64,000 bases of DNA from Escherichia coli (lineage in GTDB: Bacteria > Pseudomonadota > Gammaproteobacteria > Enterobacterales > Enterobacteriaceae), in NCBI RefSeq assembly GCF_016026235.1, contig NZ_CP065613.1; one strand, given 5' to 3'. Positions 40,520 to 40,976 of this stretch are shown piece by piece (position 1 is the first letter of the stretch; the number at the start of each line of letters is the position of its first letter). Below the pieces are notes generated by a model. That model made no database searches and was not told the origin of the DNA. It saw only the letters and a list, made by a program, of their open reading frames with translations. A program made the position numbers and the translations under genes.

Positions 40520-40548
40520 AATGGCGCTTTATAAGGTGCCATTTTTTT
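40520..40548 (+). terminator. Rho-independent terminator for fdnGHI (AAUGGCGC loop GUGCCAUU + U7)
   Basis: 8-bp stem (one G-U pair), 8-nt loop, then T7; about 200 bp after fdnI and overlapping the 3' end of convergent yddM. Confidence 0.6.
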
Positions 40549-40831
40549 ATTGCGTAACCAGACGGCGTAATCGCGACACATCCACCGTTTTTTCTGCCTC
40601 TGCCAGACTCCAGGCGTTTTGCAGATTCAGCCACATTTGCGGCGAACTGCCGATCACCACGGAAAGTTTAATTGCCATTTCTGGCGTCAAAGCTGTTTTT
40701 CCGGTCAGCAATCGGCTTGCCGTTGAGGGCGCAATTTCCATTGCTCTGGCAAACTCGCGCAGGCTAACATTAAGTTCGTCCAGTGATTCCTGAATAATGT
40801 CCCCCGGGCGGGGATGATTGGCCATTTTCAT
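40547..40831 (-). CDS. yddM: HTH (XRE/HigA-like) antitoxin-family DNA-binding protein
   Basis: ORF 40547..40909; likely start ATG at 40831 ([19 protein letters not shown]...), 94 aa. Confidence 0.8.
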
Positions 40832-40976
40832 TAGTGTCTTTACTCTCAGTAGCGTTCCTTCTCTGGGAACACTATCATTATTGTTCCTTCCTACGCAACA
40901 ATAATCCATTTAGCCATTTCATGTTGGAGAGTGTGCGATGCTGCGACCCGAACATGGCAGTCGCAGCAAAGGCCTC

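Follow-up and report, generated by a model that had tools for sequence, protein, structure and literature searches.

The HigBA system of Rts1 combines a ribosome-dependent mRNA endonuclease toxin, HigB, with an HTH antitoxin, HigA. Bidirectional intrinsic terminators between convergent genes are likewise a known class in E. coli. The closest described relative of the locus analyzed here is ParE-2/HigA-2 (TA20) of AIEC NRG857c and CFT073, in which genes of 279 and 285 nt overlap by 1 nt; at the same locus, strains HS and K-12 contain the antitoxin only (PMC7232551). K-12 carries a full higBA module (HigA/YgjM) where NRG857c and CFT073 retain only an orphan higA (PMC7232551). Deletion of higBA in CFT073 gave no phenotype in a mouse urinary tract model, and the deleted genes may be another higBA locus (PMC3464220). 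According to a review, the PDB entries 2ICP and 2ICT are YddM from E. coli CFT073 (PMC3968373).

Here, yddM was analyzed within the window, by which we mean the whole 64-kb stretch of E. coli DNA under study. It is very probable that yddM is the HigA half of an ancestral higBA module that has lost higB and kept its promoter and operator, that its product is a likely autorepressor, and that the gene ends at the descendant of a terminator held in common with fdnGHI. Since the antitoxin-only K-12 locus has been published (PMC7232551), this finding is already known in substance. The additions made here are population frequencies, outgroup evidence for the ancestry of the locus, a conserved operator and the history of the terminator.

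Identity of yddM and its surroundings in the window

Three genes frame the analysis:

39665-40318, plus strand: fdnI, last gene of fdnGHI, convergent with yddM (open reading frame, tblastn, RefSeq annotation of matching genomes)
40547-40831, minus strand: yddM, encoding a 94-aa HigA-family antitoxin/HTH repressor, the toxin being absent here (open reading frame and profile matches)
40977-41987, minus strand: adhP, upstream of yddM on the same strand (open reading frame, tblastn, RefSeq annotation)

yddM is a HigA antitoxin gene. Its reading frame starts at 40831 and closes with a TAA that is the complement of 40547-40549, the protein ending in ...RRLVTQ. YddM matches NCBIfam TIGR02607 antidote_HigA, titled 'HigA family addiction module antitoxin' and of the Xre/HTH_3 fold, over positions 1-80 of the 81 of the profile (E=8.5e-27, 92.8 bits, cut-off 47.7), and Pfam HTH_3 with 40.3 bits (E=3.3e-10, cut-off 23). 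In comparison to 2ICP/2ICT, deposited as 'antitoxin higa', 93 of 94 residues are identical, the sole difference being A46T. Residues 7-87 align with Rts1 HigA (4MCX_A, 72 bits), and a match to YbaQ (PDB 2EBY, E=5.9e-09) places both proteins in the same fold family. As YddM differs by this one residue (A46T) from the HigA of toxin-bearing strains, binding to a HigB toxin should persist if one arrives.

Codon 46 (40694-40696) encodes Thr in the window allele and Ala in almost all E. coli; Rts1 HigA also has Thr at the aligned position (GKTALTP). Only 7 genomes carry an allele at least 99% identical to the yddM of the window. The 94-aa frame is enclosed by a longer minus-strand open reading frame (40547-40909), and a 120-aa product starting from the ATG at 40909 was considered and rejected: the extension has no family match, homologues begin with MKMANH directly after the toxin stop, and this ATG lies upstream of the proposed promoter.

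Between yddM and adhP lies a spacer of 145 bp (40832-40976). Its longest open reading frames encode 25 and 24 aa on the minus strand; those on the plus strand reach 28 and 48 aa. A hidden short toxin was sought in all six frames and rejected, as no frame on the yddM strand exceeds 25 aa and the conserved parts of the spacer are operator half-sites. A tblastn search of the 64-kb window with the real HigB partner detected no HigB homologue at E<=1e-3. The window hence contains the antitoxin only, with no adjacent toxin gene that would complete a higBA module. With the toxin lost, toxin-antitoxin activity is impossible there.

The original prediction had described yddM as a 94-aa HTH protein of the antitoxin type, an orphan with no toxin-sized open reading frame in the 145 bp toward adhP. 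The TIGR02607 score and the one-residue difference from 2ICP agree with the first part. The 25-aa maximum on the minus strand confirms the second, and reading of the frames together with tblastn extends orphan status in this strain to the spacer and the window. A short toxin gene adjoining yddM had been named as the observation that would speak against the prediction. No such gene is present in the window, where the orphan call stands, but one is found in the pangenome, so that being an orphan is not a property of the gene as such.

Distribution of higB and ancestry of the locus

In strain EcPNK004 a 92-aa open reading frame lies between yddM and adhP, and its TGA overlaps the yddM ATG. The encoded protein matches PF05015 HigB-like_toxin (E=1.4e-17) and aligns end to end with Rts1 HigB (4MCT_B, 112 bits), including a conserved C-terminal NGDAYIL-YEDYH. 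A search of this locus in 5426 complete E. coli genomes revealed several length classes, some with an annotated RelE/ParE-family toxin between yddM and adhP. We found higB in 1331 of the 5426 genomes (24.5%), in a single place in each, and adjoining yddM at every locus whose context was checked. yddM itself was detected in 5412 (99.7%), and 5408 genomes have it near full length. In an evenly spaced yddM sample each of the 29 full-length rows spans exactly 285 nt, and the 13 E. coli alleles inspected are all intact open reading frames. From these two counts, roughly three quarters of E. coli have yddM without higB.

The toxin gene is not always intact where it is present. About 40% of an evenly spaced sample of higB rows are 278 nt long instead of 279 nt, a frameshifted form. 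This 1-nt deletion occurs in many toxin-bearing genomes, including ST131, and also in Ecol_AZ161, where RefSeq annotates the gene as frameshifted (L002, 1003-1280). With the 278-nt form, yddM becomes an orphan in a second and independent way.

Two further records deserve mention. O157:H7 strain TR01 (L005, 902-1046) has a rare mosaic spacer, likewise of 145 bp, whose adhP side corresponds to the toxin-bearing allele, whose middle 29 nt correspond to the toxin-less allele and whose last 47 nt are 100% identical to the higB 3' end. Partial higB matches of this kind were seen in only 2 genomes, and the mosaic could reflect recombination or an error of assembly. In the plasmid collection, the record NZ_CP141089.1 (E. 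coli, 4.9 Mb) contains a higB-yddM locus and looks like a misfiled chromosome.

For the ancestry of the locus, YddM was used as query against one genome per species across bacteria, yielding 41 loci. In 37 of the 41 a HigB (PF05015) match lies directly upstream of the yddM homologue and ends 2-3 nt before it; 30 matches are full length and uninterrupted. Downstream, fdnI is the neighbor in E. albertii, other Escherichia, many Citrobacter, Pluralibacter and two further enterobacteria, and adhP is found upstream in Escherichia and in two Citrobacter. With higB upstream in 37 of 41 loci and fdnI or adhP as neighbors in the outgroups, a toxin-first higBA is thus ancestral at this site and the window represents a loss allele. 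Gene order argues that higBA has been located between fdnI and adhP since before the split of Escherichia and Citrobacter and that the loss of higB is lineage-specific.

Decayed toxin genes were also seen outside E. coli. In Citrobacter sp. FP75 the toxin is truncated beside a surviving antitoxin, in C. portucalensis and Xenorhabdus lircayensis the toxin match is broken into two pieces, and at the yddM-homologue locus of Chimaeribacter californicus no toxin match was found. These loci point to toxin decay with survival of the antitoxin as a process that recurs independently across genera. A 214-nt contig labelled Clostridium sp. CMCC3677 (L036) codes for YddM residues 1-36 with 100% identity to the E. 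coli protein and is most likely an assembly contamination.

Proposed promoter, operator and hairpins flanking yddM

The spacer upstream of yddM contains the following elements:

40832-40853, minus strand: 22-nt leader separating the yddM ATG from the last operator half-site (pairwise alignment to EcPNK004)
40854-40899, minus strand: retained higBA promoter/operator (cross-genus alignment)
40895-40899: half-site GTTGC, minus-strand reading
40883-40887: half-site GGAAC, minus-strand reading
40866-40870: half-site GTTCC, minus-strand reading
40854-40858: half-site GGAAC, minus-strand reading
40893-40898, minus strand: proposed -35, TTGCGT
40871-40876, minus strand: proposed -10, GATAGT
40940-40967, minus strand: hairpin after the adhP stop, GCUGCGAC...GUCGCAGC

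Regions upstream of higB were aligned with the sequence that precedes yddM in E. coli lacking the toxin, using 19 sequences from Escherichia, Citrobacter, Cedecea, Buttiauxella, Pluralibacter, Chimaeribacter and Erwinia. Four pentamers are invariant across these seven genera and the remainder is variable, giving the pattern TGTTGCG-N-GGAACA-N10-TGTTCC-N7-GGAAC. All four half-sites are kept in the window, in which GTTCC-N7-GGAAC occurs once, compared to 0.07 expected occurrences. A consensus promoter scan of 40100-41200 called no promoter; the -35 and -10 are consequently proposed from the cross-genus alignment. A genomic SELEX study lists an RNA polymerase site assigned to yddM in the spacer toward adhP (PMC3946193). 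Since the promoter and the four half-sites are kept, YddM most likely represses its own transcription, acting through the palindromic operators.

Two rearrangements of this region were observed. VCSW7 (L052, 505-620) and MLI106K1 (L053, 1216-1331) have a toxin-less spacer of 116 bp with a 29-bp deletion between the two GGAAC repeats (window ~40854-40882), which removes the proposed -10 and one half-site and leaves yddM intact. As both strains keep yddM despite this loss, autoregulation from the proposed promoter would not be indispensable. In E2863 and RM10809-3 (L050 and L051; window 40880-40908), 21 bp, TTGTTGCGTAGGAAGGAACAA, are exactly inverted to TTGTTCCTTCCTACGCAACAA between the inverted repeats ATTATTGTT and AACAATAAT. 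This inversion exchanges both half-sites of the distal operator, and both are retained.

In toxin-bearing strains the 279-nt higB occupies the position of the leader (40832-40853). The 22 nt were considered as a remnant of either end of higB, and this was rejected because the leader aligns with neither end better than shuffled sequence does. The adhP side and the other non-operator parts of the spacer differ between toxin-less and toxin-bearing alleles as well, the spacer of the window being the shorter. With these differences and a leader that does not resemble higB, the loss is no clean, datable deletion.

The hairpin after adhP folds at -18.8 kcal/mol with a z of only -1.5. It is followed by CUGUUUUG in toxin-bearing alleles and by AUCGCACAC, which has no U-run, in the toxin-less allele of the window. 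Because the U-run is missing, termination after adhP may be less efficient, with possible read-through from adhP into yddM. A broader proposal would have the antitoxin kept by selection, either for immunity to incoming HigB or as a co-opted regulator, and the adhP U-run lost in the same rearrangement, resulting in partial co-transcription of adhP and yddM. We regard this combination as doubtful; if true, it would tie the dose of yddM to alcohol dehydrogenase expression in toxin-less E. coli.

On the other side of yddM, the intergenic region toward fdnI contains:

40338-40369, plus strand: proximal hairpin (copy 1) with tail UUUUCAUAUUG, located 20 nt past the fdnI stop at 40316-40318 (inverted and direct repeats)
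40341-40518: 178-bp unit, consisting of hairpin copy 1 and the REP pair
40397-40497, no strand: inverted REP pair (BIME) between both hairpin copies (inverted repeats)
40519-40544, plus strand: distal hairpin (copy 2) with a T7 run at 40542-40548, overlapping the yddM stop (scanner match)

The distal hairpin has 11 pairs, a loop of 4 and the tail TTTTATTGCG; on the plus strand, a stem followed by U7 gives it the form of an intrinsic terminator. It is the only terminator-like site called by the scanner in 40100-41200, and shuffled sequence gave a mean of 1.0. As one site is no more than the shuffled mean, the argument for a real hairpin is its conservation. On the plus strand the fold reaches -14.0 kcal/mol (z -3.6); on the minus strand it reaches only -8.2 kcal/mol, the tail there is UUUGAAAC, and the weakness is due to two G.U pairs that turn into A.C mismatches. 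The proximal copy is more stable, its plus strand folding at -19.4 kcal/mol (z -5.5) and its minus strand at -11.5 kcal/mol. Both derive from a 34-nt hairpin sequence present twice (40341-40374 and 40519-40552), 82% identical and 178 bp apart, with the REP pair between them.

Other strains contain a single copy. In 22AR0322, E2863, VCSW7 and AZ161 one perfect hairpin, GAAAATGGCGCTT-TAAG-AAGCGCCATTTTTTT, lies between both stop codons. This hairpin (allele L003) folds at -16.9 kcal/mol on the plus and -16.2 kcal/mol on the minus strand, with U7 and U4 tails, and its flanks are matched by the right flank of the distal copy and the left flank of the proximal copy. In Citrobacter and Pluralibacter the same hairpin is found past the fdnI stop, its inner stem and loop being variable, and the yddM homologue of Pluralibacter likewise ends at the T-run. 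Among 12 sequences, the 12-pair consensus stem has an invariant core, ATGGCGC/GCGCCAT, and compensatory changes at 2 of the 12 pairs, a modest support from covariation. Comparison of these alleles argues for one perfect bidirectional hairpin, common to fdnI and yddM, as the ancestral state.

According to the original prediction, the yddM stop lies inside the T-run of a strong fdn terminator, so that both convergent genes would share one structure. The first part is correct, as the TAA covers the last two T of 40542-40548. The second agrees with descent from an ancestral bidirectional terminator; as a description of the window it does not hold, because the distal copy is situated 200 nt from fdnI, behind the -19.4 kcal/mol sister copy and the REP pair, and reaches only -8.2 kcal/mol on the yddM strand. 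A single shared structure fits the L003 allele better. A literature search on the fdnI terminator found no transcript 3'-end data.

The REP pair consists of two inverted palindromic units, 40397-40432 and 40465-40497. Imperfect palindromes of about 35 nt, inverted pairing and many copies per genome (in E. coli genomes the median number of matching places is 38) identify it as a REP/BIME element. An Rfam search gave only sub-threshold matches, to naRNA4 and ES036, on the REP elements; we take both to be REP-derived families. L003, with a spacer of 50 nt, has no 178-bp unit; the window has one and K-12 two, which gives K-12 three hairpins. At least one unit was found in 2510 of 5426 genomes. A dispersed mobile repeat was rejected, because the unit occurs only at the fdnI-yddM locus, in 1-4 places per genome; being confined to this locus, it represents a local tandem polymorphism.

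The intergenic region varies further. In Escherichia sp. MOD1-EC7003 (L008, 2786-3340) the fdnI-yddM spacer measures about 555 bp and the yddM 3' end lies away from the hairpin. MLI106K1 contains an IS200/IS605 tnpA between fdnI and yddM (L053, 365-823). From E. coli B (L049) the proximal hairpin has disappeared; the REP pair and the distal copy are still there.

Possible roles of YddM and comparison with known systems

The protein WP_000781370.1 is annotated in both toxin-bearing and toxin-less strains. Ten toxin-less alleles of yddM contain 12 variable codons, 8 silent and 4 replacement; six toxin-bearing Escherichia alleles contain 30, of which 28 are silent and 2 replacement (Fisher p=0.046). 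Within E. coli, pairwise dN/dS values lie at 0-0.16, comparisons with Citrobacter give about 0.04-0.05, and among toxin-less alleles dS reaches 0.06-0.08 at a dN of 0-0.005. The ratios indicate that purifying selection on yddM is still visible, and constraint may be relaxed in toxin-less alleles.

In the reading that we prefer, higB would have been removed in the lineage of the window while native promoter, operator and antitoxin gene stayed. YddM, a small dimeric HTH protein predicted to retain HigB binding, would bind both palindromic operators located at the yddM promoter and thereby repress its own gene. The ancestral bidirectional terminator would have been duplicated around the REP pair, so that fdn transcripts would meet two hairpins. 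yddM transcripts would first meet the distal copy, weakened on their strand by the two G.U-to-A.C positions.

What keeps yddM in the population may be explained differently. yddM is kept by 99.7% of complete genomes, although about 75% of these lack higB, and this would fit a gene domesticated as a stand-alone transcription factor, whose selected role in toxin-less E. coli is the regulation of other genes. A ChIP-exo study in K-12 indeed treated YddM as a DNA-binding transcription factor, with motif analysis and assigned target genes (PMC6237786), genetic-interaction profiles tie yddM to stress regulators (PMC9283627), and the open reading frame is kept in strains that have lost the proposed -10. 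However, the protein is identical in toxin-bearing and toxin-less strains and so gives no sign of adaptation to a new role, the GTTCC-N7-GGAAC motif is found only at the yddM promoter within the 64-kb window, and constraint looks relaxed rather than renewed. We consider domestication rather unlikely. The identity to the cognate HigA of toxin-bearing strains could instead be expected of an anti-addiction or immunity gene, kept against HigB that arrives on plasmids or by recombination with toxin-bearing strains. HigB homologues were found on 539 plasmids, 99 of them from Escherichia, Rts1-type HigB reaching 56.5% identity, and the A46T exchange of the window introduces the residue present in Rts1 HigA. 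Against this, all but three of the 539 plasmid matches are less than 60% identical to the cognate toxin, and cross-neutralization between type II pairs is usually narrow, which makes immunity an unlikely reason for the retention of yddM.

A third explanation dispenses with selection: yddM would be a decaying relic without a selected function, too little time having passed since the loss of the toxin. The relatively larger share of replacement polymorphisms in toxin-less alleles (p=0.046) and the tolerated promoter rearrangements (21-bp inversion, 29-bp deletion) are consistent with this, as is toxin decay beside a surviving antitoxin elsewhere (the ST131-type frameshift, and truncation or frameshift in Citrobacter and Xenorhabdus). 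A relic is nevertheless improbable given near-full-length genes in 5408 of 5426 genomes, 29 of 29 full-length sampled rows of exactly 285 nt, 13 of 13 intact E. coli alleles, and a dS of 0.06-0.08 between toxin-less alleles at a dN of only 0-0.005. Finally, the partner toxin could be encoded elsewhere in this genome and act in trans; the examination covered 64 kb of it, and other RelE/ParE/HigB-type toxins exist in E. coli genomes and plasmids (PMC7232551). Not only does the 64-kb window lack a HigB homologue, but cognate higB was detected in only 1331 genomes, at one place in each and beside yddM wherever the context was checked. Hence no relocated copy of at least about 85% identity is present in the other ~4100 genomes, and a partner in trans is highly improbable.

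The locus provides a clean, population-scale case of chromosomal toxin-antitoxin decay in which the toxin goes first and antitoxin and operator persist, one species displaying four states of higB: intact, frameshifted, truncated and absent. It also illustrates that an 'orphan' call made from a single genome needs a pangenome check. Strains in which one, two or three hairpins separate this convergent pair occur naturally and would lend themselves to work on termination. Beyond annotation the importance is small, and the biology is ordinary and documented.

Among known systems, CFT073 HigA/NRG857c TA20 is the same gene at the same locus as yddM of the window, with 93 of 94 residues and the same promoter/operator layout in common. 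In comparison to that pair, the window lacks the 279-nt toxin gene, has a shorter and different adhP spacer and carries A46T. HigBA of Rts1, a Proteus vulgaris plasmid (4MCT, 4MCX), has the toxin-first order of the toxin-bearing E. coli locus, and Rts1 HigB and the E. coli partner toxin share a conserved C-terminal DYEDYH/NYEDYH; however, the Rts1 module is plasmid-borne, whereas yddM is chromosomal and its toxin is lost in the window. YbaQ and the HigA/YgjM of the K-12 higBA are encoded at different loci and are distant paralogues of yddM. With respect to bidirectional terminators, the single-copy allele conforms to the class, with a GC-cored perfect stem of 12-13 bp, flanking A-run and T-run and equal folding on both strands. 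In the window, by contrast, the hairpin is duplicated around a REP pair, and the copy on the yddM side is asymmetric (-14.0 vs -8.2 kcal/mol).
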